From: a bacterium
Lineage (GTDB): Bacteria; Patescibacteriota; Microgenomatia; UBA8517
DNA length: 64,000 nt
Direction: 5' to 3'
Assembly: GCA_030583725.1 (NCBI GenBank)
Contig: CP129472.1
Location: forward strand, 401,701 to 465,700
The position numbers were made by a program, and so were the translations under genes. A model generated the notes under the pieces. The model did no database searches. It was not told where the DNA came from and worked only from the letters and a program-made list of their open reading frames with translations. Numbering within the stretch: position 1 is the first letter of the stretch; each line of letters opens with the position of its first letter. This document shows positions 47,672-58,678 of this stretch, one piece after another.

Positions 47672-48421
47672 TTAGTTCTTTGCCTCTTCTAAAACTGTTG
47701 CCGCTTCTGGGGCAGTTTCTGTCTTAGATTCTTCACCAGCAGGGCTTTCACCCTCAACAACTGTGGCTACTGCGTGATGTTCAAAATCTAAAGATCCAGA
47801 TTTTATCTTATTAACTGTCAAGAAAATTCCAACTCTTCCAGGAATTGGGCTTGAAAGTAATAGTTGATTGTTTTCTGCATCTATATCAACAACACGAGCA
47901 TTTTTAAATGTAACCTGAACTCCACCCATTCTACCCGCCATTCTCTTGCCTTTATAGACTCTACCTGGAGTTGTGGTCTGTCCTATTGATCCAGGAGCTC
48001 TGTGGCGATCACTTTGTCCGTGAGTCTTTGGCCCACCTCTAAAGTTATATCTTCTAACTCCACCAGCAAAACCTTTTCCTTTATTAACAGCAGTTACTGA
48101 AACAGTATCACCCTTTTTAAAGATATCAGAAACATTAATGATATCACCAACTTTGTAATTTGGTTCTGATGTCATTCTTACTTCTCTTACATATCTTGGA
48201 AAGTTTTTTTCTTTTGATTTGAGGTGGCCTTGAAGTGGTTTAGAAGTGTTTTTTGCTTTTCTGTTTCCGAATCCGAGTTGAATTGCCCAATAGCCATCAT
48301 TCTTTTCATTTTTAATTTGGGTAACTACACATGGGCCAAGTGTTACTTTTGTCACGGGAACTCTAGACCCGTCTATAAAAGTCTGTGTCATCTGTCCTTT
48401 TGTACCAAATAATGTTTTCAT
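47672..48421 (-). CDS. rplC: 50S ribosomal protein L3
   Basis: L3 family. It is not preceded by rpsJ here. Confidence 0.85.
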   Translation of the reverse strand: MKTLFGTKGQMTQTFIDGSRVPVTKVTLGPCVVTQIKNEKNDGYWAIQLGFGNRKAKNTSKPLQGHLKSKEKNFPRYVREVRMTSEPNYKVGDIINVSDIFKKGDTVSVTAVNKGKGFAGGVRRYNFRGGPKTHGQSDRHRAPGSIGQTTTPGRVYKGKRMAGRMGGVQVTFKNARVVDIDAENNQLLLSSPIPGRVGIFLTVNKIKSGSLDFEHHAVATVVEGESPAGEESKTETAPEAATVLEEAKN

Positions 48422-48437
48422 TTGCCGCGTGTCGTGT

Positions 48438-48472
48438 TTTAGAAAAAAATAAAAGCGCCGTAAAAGCGCTTA
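48438..48472 (-). terminator. terminator-like hairpin plus U-run in the rplC leader (candidate attenuator)
   Basis: The minus-strand RNA folds as AAGCGC-uuuuacg-GCGCUU followed by UUAUUUUUUUC. It lies between the promoter at 48539-48567 and the rplC ATG at 48421. Confidence 0.4.
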
Positions 48473-48524
48473 TCCTGCTTTTAGCATTCTTTCTTGAGGC
48501 TATCTTGTTAAATACACCTCCATA

Positions 48525-48569
48525 ATTTCTATTGGTGAATTATATCAAACTATATGACTTGTATCAAGC
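48525..48569 (-). promoter_or_regulatory. 45-bp repeated element copy 1, a near-consensus sigma70 promoter (TTGATA-N17-TATAAT) pointing at rplC
   Basis: Minus-strand reading gives -35 TTGATA (48567-48562), an exact 17-nt spacer and -10 TATAAT (48544-48539). About 110 nt upstream of rplC. Confidence 0.5.
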
Positions 48570-48835
48570 CACGCTTTCATGCTACACTTAGGCTCAAGAC
48601 GGGTATGGAAATTGTAACAAGCGTATTTAATGACGAAATTGTTATTGTCACAGGAAAGCCTGGAGATAAAACTATTCTTAGAACTCCACAACTTGGAGTA
48701 GCCCAAGCATTGGCCACTGCAAGGAACAATTTAGCAAGAACCAATCCTCTTGTTTGTTCAGATAACAATGAGAAAACTAAACCAGTTATGCCAAAAGTAT
48801 CTTTGGTAAGGTCAAATAATTAAATGAAGAGAAAA

Positions 48836-49057
48836 TTAACCTCTTCTCTCAGCACTACTATTTTGACCTTTTTCTTTCCTTTTTTCTAAAACTTCTTCGA
48901 CAGTTTCCTCTAATTGAGATCTTAATAATTCCTCTTTGGCTTCAGCACTTTCTAAAGCCAACCTAACAGTATCTTTTGAATAACCTGTTAAACCAGCCAA
49001 GAGAGAAATCTTAATTTCGTTAGGGATTTTTCTCAATTTATTAAAAACTACCTGCAT
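48836..49057 (-). CDS. small helix-turn-helix-like protein (hypothetical regulator)
   Basis: 73 aa. ISLLAGLTGYSKDTVRLAL resembles an HTH. It has its own TTGAAT-N18-TACTAT promoter. Its C-tail KGQNSSAERRG is paralogous to that of ORF 50477-50743. Confidence 0.35.
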   Translation of the reverse strand: MQVVFNKLRKIPNEIKISLLAGLTGYSKDTVRLALESAEAKEELLRSQLEETVEEVLEKRKEKGQNSSAERRG

Positions 49058-49138
49058 TTTATTATCAACAGATAGTACTCTCTTTTTTTTTTGAAATTCA
49101 AGAATTGTGATTTTTAATATTCCTGAGATAATATAAAT

Positions 49139-49723
49139 ATGTCCAACAAGAAAAATAAGGAAATCGAGATCCAGGTACAGGTTGAGAATATTAAAGGACT
49201 AAATAAGTTTCTTAGAGAAAAAGCAAAATTTATAAACAAAGAACATCAAGTAGATAAATACTTTTCCCCAAAAGATCGTAAGTTTTTAAAAGTCAGACCA
49301 GTAGTTGAGTGGCTTAGGCTACGAGATTCGTCGGATAAACAATCAATTAATTACAAAAATTGGCATCATGATAAAAATGGTAGAAGCCATTATTGTGACG
49401 AATATGAAACTCCTGTTGGAAATATGGAGCAAGTAGAGAAAATATTCAAATCGCTTGAGATAAAACCAATTGTTACTGTAGATAAAACAAGAAAAATATA
49501 TAAATACAAAGATTACGAAATTTCTATTGATTCCATTAAAGATTTAGGTAACTTTGTAGAAATTGAATATAAAGGTAAAAATACAACCAAAAGTCCAGCA
49601 AAAATCACAGAAGAAATGATTAAATTTTTAAAGGACCTAAATTGTGGAAAGATATCAAGAAATTATGTTGGCTACCCTTTTCAAATGTTATTTCCAAAAG
49701 AAGTAAAATACGAAATATTTTAA
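49139..49723 (+). CDS. CYTH-domain protein (triphosphate tunnel metalloenzyme / CyaB-like)
   Basis: N-terminal EIEIQVQV (E-x-E-x-K-like strand with Q at the Lys position), LRLR, DEYETPV and C-terminal FVEIEYKG acidic strands in CYTH order. 194 aa. Confidence 0.5.
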   Translation: MSNKKNKEIEIQVQVENIKGLNKFLREKAKFINKEHQVDKYFSPKDRKFLKVRPVVEWLRLRDSSDKQSINYKNWHHDKNGRSHYCDEYETPVGNMEQVEKIFKSLEIKPIVTVDKTRKIYKYKDYEISIDSIKDLGNFVEIEYKGKNTTKSPAKITEEMIKFLKDLNCGKISRNYVGYPFQMLFPKEVKYEIF

Positions 49724-49730
49724 TCAAAAA

Positions 49731-50372
49731 ATGCCAGATAATAATAACGAGAGGTTAAAATTATTAGAGAGGCAACCCGACTATGGAAAAGTAACAGTTT
49801 TAATTGGTCCAGATGGTGGAGGCAAAACTTACCTTTCAAATAAACTTCATGAAGATAATCCAGAAGCTATTTTAATTGATGGTACTCATCCACAAAACTG
49901 GCCTGTTTCAGATGAAAAGAAAAAGAGTCTTGCAAGATTAAAGGAAATTGGAGGTAATGATCCTAATTTTGATTATTATGGAATTTTAGGTTTAGAACTT
50001 CACAAAGTTATATATAGATTAGCAAAAGAAGGTAAAGATGTAATTGTAGACTCAGAACAAACTTTTAAATGGTTAATGTGGGAAGATATGAAAGGTAACT
50101 TAGACAAATCAATTCAAATACTAACAAGCAAAGAATTCAATGCAATTTTGCCAGATACAGTTAAGTACGTTGTTCCAGAAGCAGAAAGTTTTGATAAACA
50201 AGCAGAATTAATATGGGAACAGCAAAGCAGAAAATTACAATCAGAAGTAAGCCCTATTGACCCTAAAAATTTAGAGGAAGTTAAAACTAGACTTAAAGCT
50301 TCAGAAAATGTAATACTCGCACTTGAAAAGGTTGGAGTAATTGTTGAAGGAAAACCAAATTGGGTAAAATAA
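49731..50372 (+). CDS. P-loop NTPase, nucleoside/nucleotide-kinase-like
   Basis: Walker A VLIGPDGGGKTYL and a DVIVDSEQ Walker-B-like segment. 213 aa. The start lies 8 nt after the CYTH stop, indicating an operon pair. Confidence 0.45.
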   Translation: MPDNNNERLKLLERQPDYGKVTVLIGPDGGGKTYLSNKLHEDNPEAILIDGTHPQNWPVSDEKKKSLARLKEIGGNDPNFDYYGILGLELHKVIYRLAKEGKDVIVDSEQTFKWLMWEDMKGNLDKSIQILTSKEFNAILPDTVKYVVPEAESFDKQAELIWEQQSRKLQSEVSPIDPKNLEEVKTRLKASENVILALEKVGVIVEGKPNWVK

Positions 50373-50414
50373 ATTAATAACTAATTGGAATTTTAATAAT
50401 TACTCAATATAATC

Positions 50415-50459
50415 ATTTCTGATGGTGAATCAGATCAAACTATATGACTTGTATCAAGC
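50415..50459 (-). repeat. 45-bp repeated element copy 2 (degenerate promoter copy)
   Basis: 41 of 45 positions match copy 1. The -35 TTGATA and the 17-nt spacer are conserved, while the -10 is degraded to TCTGAT. Confidence 0.5.
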
Positions 50460-50476
50460 AATGGTTTTATAAAGTT

Positions 50477-50743
50477 TTAACTTCTTGCTTCAGTCCTACC
50501 ACCTTTTTGTTCAGCCTCAAGTTCTGCTTTGTATTTATTCATTTTGTCAATTAATGTTGGAGGTGGTTGTTCTCCACGACTTAACATACCTTCTACTAGT
50601 AATATAAAGGGTTTTCTAGAACGATCTTGTCTTTCTTTATATGTAGATAGACTGTCCCGTACACCTTTTGCAACATGTGCTATTATTCCAGAGCTCATTC
50701 CACCACCGCCTTGCCAAAAATAACGTTTACCCGACATTGCCAA
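50477..50743 (-). CDS. small hypothetical protein, paralogous to the HTH-like ORF
   Basis: 88 aa, possibly starting at the internal Met at 50698. TTGAAT-N17-TAATAT promoter upstream. C-tail QKGGRTEARS and the 3' nucleotides are homologous to ORF 48836-49057. Confidence 0.3.
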   Translation of the reverse strand: MAMSGKRYFWQGGGGMSSGIIAHVAKGVRDSLSTYKERQDRSRKPFILLVEGMLSRGEQPPPTLIDKMNKYKAELEAEQKGGRTEARS

Positions 50744-50815
50744 ATATTACTCTCTCTTTTTTTGAAATTCAACACACATATTAAAATCTTTGATTAAAGA
50801 TATTGTATAATCCAA

Positions 50816-51210
50816 ATGTATGAATCCGTAGGTATATTTAGCAGGACCAGGAAATCAATATGATCCAAGGAGGTCGATAGTTAAAAAAATAAAAGGTTTT
50901 AAATTTTATGATCCTGATACAGATTCTGATCAATCTTCATCAGAAACATTTTTCCCTCAAGATTTAACTGCAATCAAAAACTCAGAAATTTTAATTGCAA
51001 ACCCAGGCACTGCACCTGCAGAAGGAACATGGATTGAAATTGGATATTTTTACGCACTAAACACTAAAAAAGCTGGGGACTTTTGTAACAACTTGATAAT
51101 TATTTGGAACAAAGACAGAGTATCTTGGTCTATAGAATTTGTTAAAAAAACTGGCCATGTAGTTGGAACAGTTAAAGAAGCAATATCCAAACTCAGAGCG
51201 CTACACAATT
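50816..51210 (+). pseudogene. nucleoside 2-deoxyribosyltransferase-like gene with N-terminal +1 frameshift
   Basis: The frame from 50832 encodes VYLAGPGNQYD...PAEGTWIEIGYFYALNTKKAG (NDT-family YLAGP and E.G.A.A motifs) but has no start codon. An ATG at 50816 in the adjacent frame gives MYESV then stops. Deleting one nt near 50831 restores MYESVVYLAGPG. Confidence 0.5.
50984..51066. repeat. 83-bp perfect direct repeat, copy A (inside the NDT-like gene)
   Basis: Identical to 52258-52340 by eye over all 83 nt. Confidence 0.7.
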
Positions 51211-51285
51211 AGTCGTTAATCTAAATAGATCCAGTAAAGATATATCTATTGTGAATCGGTACAAGGATGTTGTGTTTAGTGACTT

Positions 51286-51942
51286 TTGATCCTGTGTTAT
51301 AATTCTTTTGTGCTTAAAAACAAAATTCTTGGCATATTAAATATACTTCTGAGTTTATGTTTTGCTTATTTTATATTCTCTGGAATTAAAAATGATGGTT
51401 TCCCGGAAATTTTTTCTTCTGAGATTTTTATATTTATTCTTTTTGTATTTTCACTGAGTATAAATATATTTGTAGTTTATAAAATGTTATTCAAAAATAA
51501 CGACAAGTTATCTTTTCCTTTGTATCTAGTATTAACCCTCTCAACTATATTTTGGTTTATATTATTGTTTGTTACTTATTTTTTTGCATCTAATTTCTTA
51601 TTTCATTTAATTATCTTGACTGCAATTTCTATTTTTTCTTACTTCCTTTATAAATTGTCAAAAAAGATAGCTTTAATGTTTTTAACTACGACTGTCTTTA
51701 TTTTGTTTATCTCAACTATAATTGGATTTAATAACGACTACTGTTGGAGAAAAGGAAGACAAGCTGATAAGACTGGAGATAAAATGATGGTTGCTACAAA
51801 AGAAGATGCTGAGTTACTTAAAAACTTTGGTGTTGTGAAAGAGGGAAATAAAATTGGAGTTAGTTTTAGAACTGAGATGTTATGCTATCAAACTTTCAAT
51901 TTCAAGGATGCTATTAGTGATCTTTTTCCAATCTTAAAGTAA
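51286..51942 (+). CDS. membrane protein with C-terminal soluble domain (hypothetical)
   Basis: About 5 TM helices followed by a 70-aa polar domain. Confidence 0.35.
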   Translation: MILCYNSFVLKNKILGILNILLSLCFAYFIFSGIKNDGFPEIFSSEIFIFILFVFSLSINIFVVYKMLFKNNDKLSFPLYLVLTLSTIFWFILLFVTYFFASNFLFHLIILTAISIFSYFLYKLSKKIALMFLTTTVFILFISTIIGFNNDYCWRKGRQADKTGDKMMVATKEDAELLKNFGVVKEGNKIGVSFRTEMLCYQTFNFKDAISDLFPILK

Positions 51943-52038
51943 CTTTTTACTTTATTACCTATTAACCCTTCGACTACTGCCAAAGTATAACTACAGGCGA
52001 TAACATTACAGAAAAAATTGTAATTAAATTTCTTATAT

Positions 52039-52257
52039 TTAAATAAGACTAAAGTGTTTAAATACATCAATTATTCCATTTTCATCCACACTTGGAGCTA
52101 TATATGAATTATTACTTCCTTTAGACAAGACAAGTTTTTTTAACTCTTCTTGTGAATTTCCCATAGCTGAAACAAACTTACAAAGCTCAATAAATTTCCA
52201 ATCTCTTGTACTATCACCGACCCCAAGCATGTTTTCAAAAGATATATTTGTTTCTTT
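52039..52257 (-). pseudogene. C-terminal fragment of a Cof-type HAD phosphatase
   Basis: VGDSTRDWKFIE...AMGNSQEELKKLVLSKGSNNSY...ENGIIDVFKHFSLI aligns to the last 70 aa of Cof-like hydrolases (GDxxND motif III, AMGNA). The first 200 aa are missing. The 5' end abuts copy B of the 83-bp repeat. Confidence 0.55.
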
Positions 52258-52340
52258 AGAAATTTTAATTGCAAACCCAGGCACTGCACCTGCAGAAGGA
52301 ACATGGATTGAAATTGGATATTTTTACGCACTAAACACTA
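52258..52340. repeat. 83-bp perfect direct repeat, copy B (rearrangement junction)
   Basis: Identical to 50984-51066. It supplies the spurious first 9 codons of ORF 52039-52284. Confidence 0.7.
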
Positions 52341-53102
52341 GATCAGTCGTTGCAATTGCATTTCTCCCTTTTGTCTTCCAAAGTGATTACCACCATATAA
52401 TATAACCCCATATTTTTCAAAAAGTTTGTATGGTGGGTCGCTTGTACGTTTCTTTGATTCAATAATTTTTCTAAGTTCATCAGAGGGCGACTTTAATGCT
52501 TCGATTGTCGTTCTTGATGCAACCATTAAACCTAATTGTGACTGAGTAATAAGACCCGATGTTGTAAGTCCTTGATGGCCTAAAGCTGCGCTAATTAAAA
52601 GACTTTGGAAATCTCCTAAAGTCCAAGTAACAGGAACGCCGTTAACTTTTGGAATCGTTTTCGAAAAATAACTTAGAAGATGATTTACTACATCATCTAA
52701 CGGATGTGAATGTATATGTGCAAATGTCCTCCAACCCGCTGGAAAAGGAATTGACTTCAATGTATTAACATGTTGATGCATCTCCTTCTGAGTTTTATCA
52801 GTCAAGCTTTCGTATTCACTACCTTCAAAAACCTTATTACTAATCATTAACTCTCCTGCGTCGTTTGTACCAATAACAGCATCGCGTTCAATCAAAATAC
52901 CAGAATCTGCTGATGTTGTATTTTTGCCACAATAAACACGGTGATAGATAGATTGAAAAAAGTTTCCATCAAGTGGAACTACAACTTTGTATGGAAACAC
53001 TTCTGGCTCTAAATCTGCCGAAACTTTAATAACTTGGCCAAAGTTTTCAAATGAATATGTTATAAAATCAGGTCTACTTGGAAACCCTACTGTTTTTTCC
53101 AT
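52338..53102 (-). CDS. hypothetical protein (H-x-H-S-H-P metal-site-like motif)
   Basis: 254 aa. The FAHIHSHP segment is loosely reminiscent of a JAMM/MPN H-S-H-P site, but the downstream S-x2-D is not evident. Confidence 0.3.
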   Translation of the reverse strand: MEKTVGFPSRPDFITYSFENFGQVIKVSADLEPEVFPYKVVVPLDGNFFQSIYHRVYCGKNTTSADSGILIERDAVIGTNDAGELMISNKVFEGSEYESLTDKTQKEMHQHVNTLKSIPFPAGWRTFAHIHSHPLDDVVNHLLSYFSKTIPKVNGVPVTWTLGDFQSLLISAALGHQGLTTSGLITQSQLGLMVASRTTIEALKSPSDELRKIIESKKRTSDPPYKLFEKYGVILYGGNHFGRQKGEMQLQRLI

Positions 53103-53133
53103 AAATTGTATTATATCAAAGATAAGAAGTTAA

Positions 53134-53784
53134 CTAATTCTGTTTTCTACTTTCAACAAACTTTTTTCCATGACCAATTTGTAAATTAATTGGTATATTT
53201 TGTTCACATAAAGGGCAATCTTTTTCATGATATGACTCGGCTTTTAAATTGGAAAGCGAAGAAAATGGAACACCCAACGTCTCAGAGTTAACTCCGTCAG
53301 GATTTCTATTAACCATAGTGCTAACCGCTGTAATCCTTCCACCAGCTTTAACAACACTTTCAACAACTTTCAATACAGAACCACCCGTTGTTGTTATGTC
53401 TTCAACTATTAAAACATCTTTGCCTTTTACCATTTCACCATATCCTCGTCTAAAAACTTGATCATTAAGTTCATCCTTTTCCGTATAAACCCCACTTATC
53501 TCTTTGCTTTTAAGCTGAGTTAAATGATATGCAGTCCATTGAGATAAAATTATTCCACCAACTGCTGGACCAACTACAACATCTATATCCAGATACTGAT
53601 GTCTTTCGGCAAACATTCTACAAACCATAGTTGTTTCCATGGGGTGCAAGTACATTGCATCTTTATTTACATATACTGATCCATGAAGTCCTGAAGTGTA
53701 GACAAAATGACCATTGGTATAGACTGCTCCGACTCTTTTAAAAAGATCAAGAAGTGGATCAACCCCTTCAAATTCTATAGTCAT
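53134..53784 (-). CDS. type I phosphoribosyltransferase, PyrE-like, with C-terminal Cys pair
   Basis: GHFVYTSGLHGSVYVN (compare PyrE GEFTLKSG..SPYFFN), PRPP-binding VLIVEDITTTGGS, and a C-terminal CPLCEQ. Confidence 0.6.
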   Translation of the reverse strand: MTIEFEGVDPLLDLFKRVGAVYTNGHFVYTSGLHGSVYVNKDAMYLHPMETTMVCRMFAERHQYLDIDVVVGPAVGGIILSQWTAYHLTQLKSKEISGVYTEKDELNDQVFRRGYGEMVKGKDVLIVEDITTTGGSVLKVVESVVKAGGRITAVSTMVNRNPDGVNSETLGVPFSSLSNLKAESYHEKDCPLCEQNIPINLQIGHGKKFVESRKQN

Positions 53785-53842
53785 TTTGAAATGATAACAT
53801 AGAATTAATATAAAGTTGTTTTTTTGGTTATTGTTGTAAAGA

Positions 53843-54106
53843 TTGTTGAGTGGTATTTTATTACTAATGGCACCTGAAGCTTTAGTTATAGTGAATAGTG
53901 GGCAATCTAGTGATGAAATGACTGAAAGATTACGGCTAGCTGGGATTAAATTTCGAGAAATGAAAGTGGAAGGTGAAACAGTCCAAGACGAGACAGGGGT
54001 TCGCCAAGTTCCAGTTATAATTACAAGAGAAGGCGACTTTACTTCAGATGGGTTAGAGAATTATTTAGAAATAAAGGCAGAACAGACAAGATTAAAAATA
54101 CGATAA
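53843..54106 (+). CDS. Cys-less NrdH/glutaredoxin-like small protein
   Basis: Fold-level resemblance to NrdH (beta-alpha-beta with VPVIIT..GDF), but SGQS replaces the CxxC. Noticeably GC-richer than its surroundings. The true start may be an internal Met. Confidence 0.3.
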   Translation: MLSGILLLMAPEALVIVNSGQSSDEMTERLRLAGIKFREMKVEGETVQDETGVRQVPVIITREGDFTSDGLENYLEIKAEQTRLKIR

Positions 54107-54116
54107 TATTTTAAAA

Positions 54117-54446
54117 ATGCCAGCAGAACGAATACACGTAACTAAAGAGAATGCTGGGATAGCAGTGGCCTCAGGAATACTACTTGGAGCTGGAGTTATC
54201 TTTCCACCGGCGGTAGGATTAGGAATTGCTGTTGGCGCCGTGGGGGTTGTAAGAGAAGAGCGACATCAACGAGATGTTCAAATGGAAAATCTTAAAAACT
54301 ATATCGAATCTAGTCTCAGGGGTAAAGCTCCGGATGAAATTAGACCAACTATTGAGGAGTTAACAAAACGAATCACAGAAGGTCGTGATCTTCAAGATAG
54401 ATTTGACGCTGTCGAAGAACTTGCTCGTAGAATTGAAGATTCATAA
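54117..54446 (+). CDS. membrane-anchored hypothetical protein
   Basis: 109 aa with a Gly/Ala-rich TM hairpin and a charged C-terminal helix. GC-richer. Confidence 0.3.
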   Translation: MPAERIHVTKENAGIAVASGILLGAGVIFPPAVGLGIAVGAVGVVREERHQRDVQMENLKNYIESSLRGKAPDEIRPTIEELTKRITEGRDLQDRFDAVEELARRIEDS

Positions 54447-54472
54447 AATTATACCTAGTTTCCACACCACTC

Positions 54473-54775
54473 TTACATCTTAATTTCTATGGAGACACCT
54501 GCTGGAAGATCCATATTGCCTAATGAATCTACTGTTCTTGGGGTTGGGTCAATTATATCAATTAGTCTTTTATGAATTAAAACTTCATAATGTTCTTGAG
54601 CATCTTTATCTGTAAATGGAGATTCTTTAACGGACATCAAGGTCCTATCAGTTGGGAGTGGGGTTGGTCCAGAAATTTTAGCACCTGAAGCTAGGGCGAC
54701 ATCTATAATCTTTGATGCTGCCTCATCTATTACTCTATGATCGTAAGCTTTTAGCTTAACTCTAAGTCTTTGCAT
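54473..54775 (-). CDS. rpsJ: 30S ribosomal protein S10
   Basis: RLRVKLKAYDHRVID...HKRLIDIIDPTP is the canonical S10 sequence. It directly follows tuf, but about 6 kb separate it from rplC. Confidence 0.9.
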   Translation of the reverse strand: MQRLRVKLKAYDHRVIDEAASKIIDVALASGAKISGPTPLPTDRTLMSVKESPFTDKDAQEHYEVLIHKRLIDIIDPTPRTVDSLGNMDLPAGVSIEIKM

Positions 54776-58605: not shown

Positions 58606-58678
58606 ATTTCTATATTAACAAACTAAAAACTCCACATTAAAGGAGCAAGAGTGATTGTAACAGGAGTGGATTAAATCT

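Follow-up and report, generated by a model that had tools for sequence, protein, structure and literature searches.

Gene regulation in the Candidate Phyla Radiation (CPR, or Patescibacteria), a group of uncultured bacteria with reduced genomes, is a subject on which, to our knowledge, almost nothing has been described. In Escherichia coli, the leader of the S10 operon is reportedly the site of transcription attenuation dependent on L4 and NusA, as developed in the work of Nomura, Lindahl, and Zengel. Ribosome-mediated attenuation is represented by leaders of the trpL/hisL type and by the attenuators of antibiotic-responsive genes with a short upstream open reading frame (uORF) that were found by Term-seq. 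Internal Shine-Dalgarno (SD) sequences act on elongating or terminating ribosomes at the frameshift sites of prfB (+1) and dnaX (−1), and those known as STAB-SD stabilize mRNA. Premature terminators in the rpsL and rimP leaders combine a constant terminator with an upstream sensor that is "multiform" by lineage (Naville and Gautheret 2010, PMC2965389), and NusA-linked attenuation of the S10 operon is mentioned in the same paper. An L4 leader candidate located upstream of rplC-rplD-rplW-rplB in Archaeoglobi is given by Eckert and Weinberg 2020 (PMC7247131). Among the papers searched, none described a leader of a CPR ribosomal protein gene or of CPR rplC, and the only described rplC leader candidate found was this archaeal L4-Archaeoglobi motif. 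The subject here is the region directly upstream of rplC, the gene for ribosomal protein L3, in a 64,000-nt stretch of a Microgenomatia genome (lineage UBA8517; GenBank assembly GCA_030583725.1, contig CP129472.1, positions 401,701 to 465,700), referred to in its whole length as the window.

The rplC gene is preceded by a promoter, a short leader, and an intrinsic terminator, in that order, all on the minus strand (Table 1). The promoter, TTGATA-17-TGnTATAAT, matches 11 of the 12 consensus positions, carries the TGn extension, and was the top site in the 2.5 kb scanned; the density of promoter-like sites scoring ≥9/12 in the same scan was no higher than chance. From promoter to terminator the leader measures ∼88 nt. 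The terminator hairpin has a predicted free energy of −8.7 kcal/mol (z = −2.67 against shuffled sequences), and its stem and U-run end 31 nt and 21 nt, respectively, before the rplC ATG (position 48421). No promoter-like site was found by the scan between the terminator and this ATG (48442 to 48422). There is no space for a promoter 3′ of the hairpin, and all rplC transcription must cross it; since the promoter precedes the terminator and none follows, read-through would be the sole route to expression of the operon, which is the arrangement of an attenuator. The same sequence is present in two further public assemblies that were assembled independently, so the region is not an assembly artifact.

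From its layout and conservation, it is highly probable that this element functions as an attenuator and is the ancestral leader of the rplC operon. The fuller reading favored here, to which a probability of about 0.45 is assigned, is that of an ancestral promoter-proximal attenuator leader of the Microgenomates L3-L4-L23-L2 operon, probably with a read-out that depends on translation of a uORF. The initial annotation of this stretch had proposed a consensus-like promoter upstream of rplC, a hairpin AAGCGC-N7-GCGCUU followed by a U-run, and the architecture of an intrinsic terminator or attenuator. The promoter is the strong one described above, the hairpin is the same one counted one pair short, and the order of promoter, leader, terminator, and rplC, with no later promoter, recurs at ∼85% of related loci. 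RNA folding, suggested there as a check, singled out the hairpin, with the z score given above, and not the 117-nt leader as a whole (z = −0.95). That description of the leader was accurate as to anatomy and missed a conserved uORF containing an SD-like heptamer.

Searches with the L3 protein identified 160 related loci, with L3 identities to the window protein of 43 to 77%; almost all of these loci belong to Microgenomates (Woese-, Gottesman-, Levy-, and Roizmanbacteria and others). A GC-rich hairpin and U-run ending ≤110 nt from rplC was present at 117 of the 137 unique loci (85%), compared with 2.2% expected from how often sites of this kind occur on the remainder of those strands. Its frequency was equal where S10 is adjacent to L3 (63/75) and where S10 is displaced by 0.3 to 6 kb (36/42), and the element therefore belongs to rplC and not to rpsJ. 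The stems of the terminator vary in sequence among lineages with the pairing retained. An alignment built with a covariance model (CM) had 98.7% of the cells of the terminator helix and 88.8% of those of a second helix, P1, in paired state, with double-sided changes in 5 of 7 and 8 of 10 pairs, respectively, against 43 to 56% in slid controls; it consists of 11 matches, including one probable false positive, and, being fitted to the structure, leans towards it. The CM detected one copy per locus, and significant matches were always at rplC. Among the unique leaders, 88 have a strong −10 box 45 to 150 nt ahead of the terminator. In the 12 aligned leaders of the window type (type 1), the −10 sequence TATAAT was invariant and a T-run was present at the terminator (12/12 each). 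Further 5′, the leaders take several unrelated-looking forms between lineages. Rfam 15 at the gathering threshold gave no matches in the window and none upstream of rplC in eight relatives; at E ≤ 10, the region 48300 to 49200 gave chance-level matches only (E > 4), and ARAGORN identified no tRNA or transfer-messenger RNA at the rplC leader. In a second form of the Woesebacteria leader (L005, L010, and L090 to L109), an extra conserved hairpin, GGCCC...GGGUUCCAAAACCAAAAUG, separates the terminator from the rplC AUG, at ∼20 to 60 nt upstream of rplC, and may be a translational operator.

The uORF begins shortly after the promoter and encloses the SD-like sequence GGAGGUG. Among the 12 type 1 leaders (L3 55 to 77% identical), the ATG, the GGAGGTG, and a TAA or TAG seven codons after the ATG are all invariant without a single indel, while the four inner codons vary freely. 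An ATG positioned 6 to 17 nt after the −10 box was found in 72 of the 88 unique leaders (82%), against 17 to 42% for permuted trinucleotides, and several leaders without it carry GTG or TTG there. Of 46 unique GGAGG contexts, 19 have their first in-frame stop 14 nt past GGAGG and a further 5 have it at 15 nt; the next-best offsets score at most 10. This spacing is shared by the 7-codon uORFs of the Woese type and the 11- to 12-codon uORFs of the Levy type (MIKRLEVYLTT-stop, compared with MEVYLTR-stop in the window), and a third leader form has GGAGG 13 nt before the stop in a different frame (..K-G-G..). In L011, L013, L015, and L019, the uORF follows the promoter as TATAAT-N9/10-ATG, which is the layout of a leaderless gene. 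The corresponding spacing in the window is 15 nt, and a short leader of ∼9 nt is predicted ahead of the uORF.

Other roles for this segment were considered and rejected. GGAGGUG lies ∼95 nt upstream of rplC, too far to be its SD sequence, and most genes here lack one; as an SD for a start 5 to 9 nt downstream it would serve a UUG in the Levy-type leaders that is absent in the window family. A boxA-like UUUAACAA inside the uORF (48511 to 48504, minus strand), similar to the 3′ portion of the NusB/S10 site boxA, is confined to the window subgroup. A second mini-ORF, AUG CUA AAA GCA GGA UAA (48487 to 48470, minus strand), keeps neither frame nor length in L081, L003, and L006; it overlaps the weak hairpin P2, and its stop codon overlaps the base of the terminator stem. 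The closest relatives by L3 (L001, L002, L076, L083, and L087) have a short leader that lacks GGAGGUG and keeps an ATG 14 nt after the −10 box. The ORF opened by this ATG crosses a weak hairpin and U-run and overlaps the start of rplC in a constant relative frame, at distances of 19, 37, or 49 nt, all 1 mod 3.

In window-type leaders, GGAGGUG is paired within hairpin P1 with a CCUC just past the uORF stop. Levy-type leaders have no P1-like hairpin; what the two forms have in common is therefore not the hairpin but a uORF that encloses an SD-like sequence. Closer to the terminator, a candidate antiterminator joins UAAAAGC to GCUUUUA; until the terminator's 3′ arm has been made, this pairing gives the minimum-energy fold, and it takes up the loop and some of the 5′ arm. 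The two segments change together in relatives (CAAAAGC/GCUUUUG in L006 and CGAAAG/CUUUCG in L003). In permutation and shuffle tests, which were modest in size, the mid region of the window family paired better with its cognate terminators than with those of relatives (P = 0.019), and complementarity between upstream sequence and terminator in 102 leaders was above that of shuffles (mean z = −0.58 ± 0.10). In the Levy type, covariation with the terminator involves the final 7 to 9 nt of the uORF (P = 0.007); the same test of the uORF 3′ end gave no signal in the window family (P = 0.15), and no covariation was detected between the SD region and the terminator (P = 0.45 to 0.52). Gottesman-type leaders carry a conserved CGGAUUUUGGG 6 to 16 nt after the uORF stop whose pairing with the terminator has an energy of −10 to −14 kcal/mol, in the L033 family and L061 the complementary nucleotides adjoin the uORF stop, and in L011 GGAGGUG itself is complementary to CGCCUCC of the terminator region. 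In these other forms (Levy, Gottesman, L033 with L061, and L011), a ribosome standing at the uORF stop could reach the terminator-complementary strand. A weak long-range pairing of GGAGGUG with the terminator tail (−1.5 kcal/mol, no compensatory changes), obtained with RNAalifold on a MAFFT alignment of the 12 leaders, was rejected as an alignment artifact because differences in loop length misalign the hairpins.

Table 1. Positions of the rplC leader features and the related repeat within the window
Feature	Position	Strand	Sequence, basis, or remark
Promoter element copy 1	48522-48580	−	59 nt, 85% identity to copy 2
−35 hexamer	48567-48562	−	TTGATA; promoter scan; relatives have TTGCGT, TTGCGA, or TTGATA in the same place
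Extended −10	48547-48539	−	TGaTATAAT; 17-nt spacer from −35
Predicted short 5′ untranslated region	48532-48524	−	AUAGAAAUU; start near 48532 suggested by analogy with leaderless genes
7-codon uORF	48523-48500	−	AUG GAG GUG UAU UUA ACA AGA UAG (MEVYLTR-stop); ORF reading and alignment of 12 leaders
SD-like sequence inside uORF	48521-48515	−	GGAGGUG; 14 nt from GGAGG to stop codon
Hairpin P1	48520-48496	−	GAGGU.UAUUU / AGAUAGCCUC; sequesters SD-like sequence; −7.7 kcal/mol, z ∼ −2.7
Weak hairpin P2	48486-48476	−	UGCU-AAA-AGCA; contains candidate antiterminator strand
Candidate antiterminator	48483-48477 with 48467-48461	−	UAAAAGC with GCUUUUA; duplex −8.8 kcal/mol
Terminator stem-loop	48471-48453	−	AAGCGCU-UUUAC-GGCGCUU; 7-bp stem, 4 GC pairs, 5-nt loop
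Terminator 5′ arm	48471-48465	−	
Terminator loop	48464-48460	−	UUUAC
Terminator 3′ arm	48459-48453	−	
U-run	48452-48443	−	UUAUUUUUUU; abuts stem; predicted 3′ ends of attenuated transcripts
Spacer, U-run to rplC ATG	48442-48422	−	No −10-like box, no SD
rplC (L3)	47672-48421	−	Pfam Ribosomal_L3 and neighbors; heads L3-L4-L23-L2-S19-L22-S3-L16... cluster
Promoter element copy 2	50412-50470	−	−35 kept, −10 is TCTGAT; no leader after it

The use of SD sequences and leaderless starts was surveyed over the window. SD-like tetramers precede 13 of the 84 window ORFs, a number near chance, and rplC has none. A perfect GGAGGTG (35293 to 35287) is found 7 nt before the ATG of rpoA, and the anti-SD sequence is therefore probably functional. 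Boxes resembling −10 sequences peak 5 to 9 nt before start codons, six genes (tuf among them) have a TATAAT that ends 6 to 9 nt ahead of their ATG, and the genome appears rich in leaderless genes. Upstream of tuf, a promoter matching 12 of 12 consensus positions (56120 to 56091, minus strand) is followed within ∼10 nt by a hairpin and U-run (56080 to 56063) located 38 nt before the gene, and the end of a second TATAAT is 9 nt from the tuf ATG. The region resembles another promoter-then-terminator arrangement before a translation gene. A weak hairpin with U-run (58629 to 58646, minus strand) lies 23 nt before the start of fusA and 67 nt after the preceding ORF.

These elements could be joined into a mechanism as follows. 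RNA polymerase would start at the extended −10 promoter, synthesize the leader, and meet the terminator 21 to 31 nt before rplC, so that the operon would be expressed from read-through transcripts only; in relatives with adjacent S10, the same terminator would also close the tuf-rpsJ transcript. The decision whether to terminate would be read through the 7-codon uORF, which has only a very short leader ahead of it and belongs to an organism with leaderless mRNAs. Pairing of the internal GGAGGUG with 16S rRNA would hold or pause the terminating ribosome, a step proposed by analogy with prfB and dnaX, and when no ribosome is present GGAGGUG would be folded into P1. Occupancy of the uORF by ribosomes would then bias the choice between the weak antiterminator and the terminator, and transcription of the ribosomal protein genes would thereby follow translational capacity. 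Setting of the read-through level by uORF translation is put forward as the likeliest read-out, though tentatively, at somewhat worse than even odds. The broader proposition, that ribosomes themselves, and not a ribosomal protein bound to an rRNA mimic, control the main ribosomal protein operon of Microgenomates through a uORF "brake," is more doubtful.

Several points weigh against the uORF-dependent attenuator. The whole analysis is computational, and the related sequences share phylogeny, so the counts and permutation P values given above are not independent trials. The 9-nt leader predicted for the uORF has no SD and is longer than the 6- to 9-nt spacing of leaderless genes. The invariant AUGGAGGUG and the UAR stop could be motifs acting at the RNA level, and AT-rich DNA will contain short ORFs by chance. 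The closest relatives by L3 (L001, L002, and L076) are among those with the shorter leader that lacks GGAGGUG. In addition to the unremarkable fold of the leader as a whole, the complementarity of the candidate antiterminator in the window alone is not significant (z = −1.27), and as a hairpin it is weaker, at −5.1 kcal/mol, than the terminator at −8.2 to −8.7 kcal/mol. In the window subgroup, the candidate antiterminator strand lies 17 to 23 nt past the uORF stop, farther than a terminating ribosome is expected to cover, and communication between uORF and terminator in this subgroup is a step that the model leaves unexplained.

Autogenous control of the kind associated with L4 would account for part of the same observations. 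Excess L4 (or L3) could bind P1, P2, or the terminator hairpin and, together with NusA, raise pausing and termination at the U-run, with the uORF-like features being RNA-level parts of the protein-binding site. The location directly before the L3 and L4 genes, with a terminator 21 to 31 nt ahead of the first ORF, fits such control, as does the unusual conservation of hairpins, loops included, within subgroups (GGCGC..GCGCC in Woesebacteria and AGCCCCGAUCCGGGGCU in the Gottesman type), which would suit sequence-specific recognition; the Archaeoglobi L4 leader candidate (PMC7247131) and the multiform ribosomal protein leaders (PMC2965389) offer precedents. The lack of similarity to any Rfam leader does not favor it, the great differences among lineages in the 5′ domains are awkward for one conserved ligand, and neither the conserved start codon, with its swaps of ATG for GTG, nor the fixed uORF length and GGAGG-to-stop spacing kept across frames would be explained. 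Autogenous control is regarded as the main rival to the uORF-dependent attenuator, though the less likely of the two. A purely constitutive element is considered less likely still: a leaky boundary terminator that steps down the output of the highly expressed tuf-rpsJ unit together with that of the local promoter, and/or a 5′ structure that stabilizes the mRNA and keeps the AU-rich, SD-less rplC start open, with the 5′ GGAGGUG as a stabilizer of the STAB-SD type. The absence of any other terminator after rpsJ in relatives with adjacent S10, the like sites before tuf and fusA, the thermodynamic advantage of the terminator over the candidate antiterminator, and the lack of an SD at rplC are all in keeping with this. 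Yet more than 100 lineages keep the order of promoter, terminator, and gene, where a promoter placed after the terminator would be simpler; in 36 of 36 displaced cases that have a terminator it has remained beside rplC and not S10, its complementary segments are conserved or covary, and a stabilizer needs neither a U-run abutting the stem nor a fixed distance from SD to stop.

The ∼88-nt unit could also be a stand-alone gene for a trans-acting small RNA that merely adjoins rplC. A strong promoter and a terminator of its own make it complete as a transcription unit, and the core AUGGAGGUG is conserved; its position is, however, always immediately upstream of rplC even beside inserts of 0.3 to 6 kb, rplC has no other promoter, the CM finds a single copy per locus with significant matches at rplC only, and Rfam gives no match, which together make a small RNA gene very improbable. 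As to origin, the initial annotation held that S10 had been displaced and that a repeated 45-bp element had newly supplied the promoter, and it raised, as speculation, an autoregulatory leader rebuilt before L3. S10 is indeed displaced (54473 to 54775, 6,052 nt upstream of rplC), and the element is indeed repeated, at a length of 59 nt and not 45, so a repeat-supplied promoter has some initial appeal. In blastn comparisons with the nearest relatives, however, homology covers tuf and rpsJ, ends exactly at the S10 stop codon (54473), and restarts at 48548 to 48599, which is the rplC promoter. Moreover, relatives in which S10 is adjacent to L3, namely L004 (gap of 180 nt), L006 (159 nt), L085 (157 nt), and L089 (180 nt), contain the same TATAAT, leader, and terminator inside the spacer. 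The breakpoints and the presence of the same leader between adjacent S10 and L3 genes indicate that promoter and leader are ancestral and were not rebuilt. On this comparison, 5.9 kb has been inserted upstream of a preexisting rplC promoter, and the insert is lineage specific. The second copy of the element is the degenerate one: homology to copy 1 is lost ∼20 nt beyond the −10 box, and covariance model R1 gave no match at copy 2. Judged by sequence, copy 2 is a derived, decayed partial duplicate and copy 1 the ancestral promoter, and a promoter newly brought in by the repeat is scarcely credible.

Copy 2 was also considered as a second active promoter and leader and was rejected, since its −10 box is destroyed, the leader is absent, and the CM does not match. 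Its mutated −10 box forms a perfect small hairpin, UCUGAU-ucacc-AUCAGA (50425 to 50441, minus strand), which copy 1 does not have. The insert (48600 to 54472 in the window) encodes a CYTH protein, a P-loop protein, a phosphoribosyltransferase, and several unknowns; tblastn detected no relatives of these genes in the 160 loci, and the notion of a shared mobile cassette was dropped on that result. A perfect 83-nt direct repeat occurs within the insert (50984 to 51066 and 52258 to 52340, 1,274 nt apart). More generally, the S10/L3 junction is a recurrent insertion site in Microgenomates, with 0.3 to 6 kb between rpsJ and rplC in 42 of 117 unique loci. The insertions are always upstream of the rplC promoter; the gap in the window is the largest (6,052 nt), and the insertion in L005 contains a tRNA. 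On the plus strand, an 89-amino-acid ORF (48554 to 48823) runs divergently from rplC and overlaps the −35 hexamer; it is called in two other assemblies and has no Pfam match.

The story of a promoter rebuilt after rearrangement is thereby corrected, and rpsJ emerges as transcriptionally separate from rplC in Microgenomates, which is why the junction between S10 and L3 tolerates insertions in about one-third of genomes. The leader is an easily recognized cis-regulatory element that occurs group-wide before the largest ribosomal protein operon of CPR bacteria; being absent from Rfam 15, it could become a family there. It also provides a testable case of a possible ribosome-sensing uORF attenuator for ribosomal protein synthesis. 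If the uORF-dependent attenuator proves true, it would represent a new class of ribosomal protein operon control, in which free translational capacity feeds back on transcription of L3-L4-L23-L2 and the genes that follow, and a rare functional use of SD/anti-SD pairing in a lineage that has largely dropped SD sequences for initiation.

In its working, the leader resembles both the E. coli S10 leader and the leader-peptide attenuators, but it fits the definition of neither family: it lies upstream of rplC and not rpsJ and has no detectable homology to them. Like the S10 leader of E. coli, it precedes the L3, L4, L23, and L2 gene cluster and has a terminator hairpin and U-run ∼30 nt before the first ORF that all transcription of the operon crosses. 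Unlike that leader, it has S10 in an upstream unit (6 kb away in the window), is ∼88 nt long compared with ∼170 nt, carries a conserved uORF with an SD-like sequence, and has no similarity to it in sequence or structure and no Rfam match. With the leader-peptide attenuators it shares the order of promoter, short ORF, candidate antiterminator strand near the ORF end, terminator, and genes, and several related leader forms would place this candidate strand within the footprint of a terminating ribosome. It differs from them in governing a ribosomal protein operon, in having no regulatory codon runs, in a uORF on a leaderless or nearly leaderless transcript whose internal SD-like sequence keeps a constant spacing to the stop, and, in the window subgroup, in a candidate antiterminator strand outside the footprint. 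As in prfB, dnaX, and STAB-SD, an SD-like sequence that does not initiate a downstream gene stands at a fixed distance from a target codon or near the 5′ end; unlike in prfB and dnaX, there is no slippery site, and 11 nt separate it from the P-site codon at the stop (3 nt in prfB), and a fixed SD-to-stop distance is not a feature of STAB-SD. The Archaeoglobi L4 candidate is likewise a candidate cis-regulatory RNA directly before rplC-rplD-rplW-rplB; it is archaeal and a different motif with no match in Rfam scans of the window or its relatives, and the available part of its description (PMC7247131) mentions no uORF or terminator. The rpsL and rimP leaders belong to another operon and other taxa, CPR bacteria being outside the 2010 survey, and they share with the present leader a conserved attenuator before an operon of the translation apparatus, in which a constant terminator is combined with a variable 5′ part.

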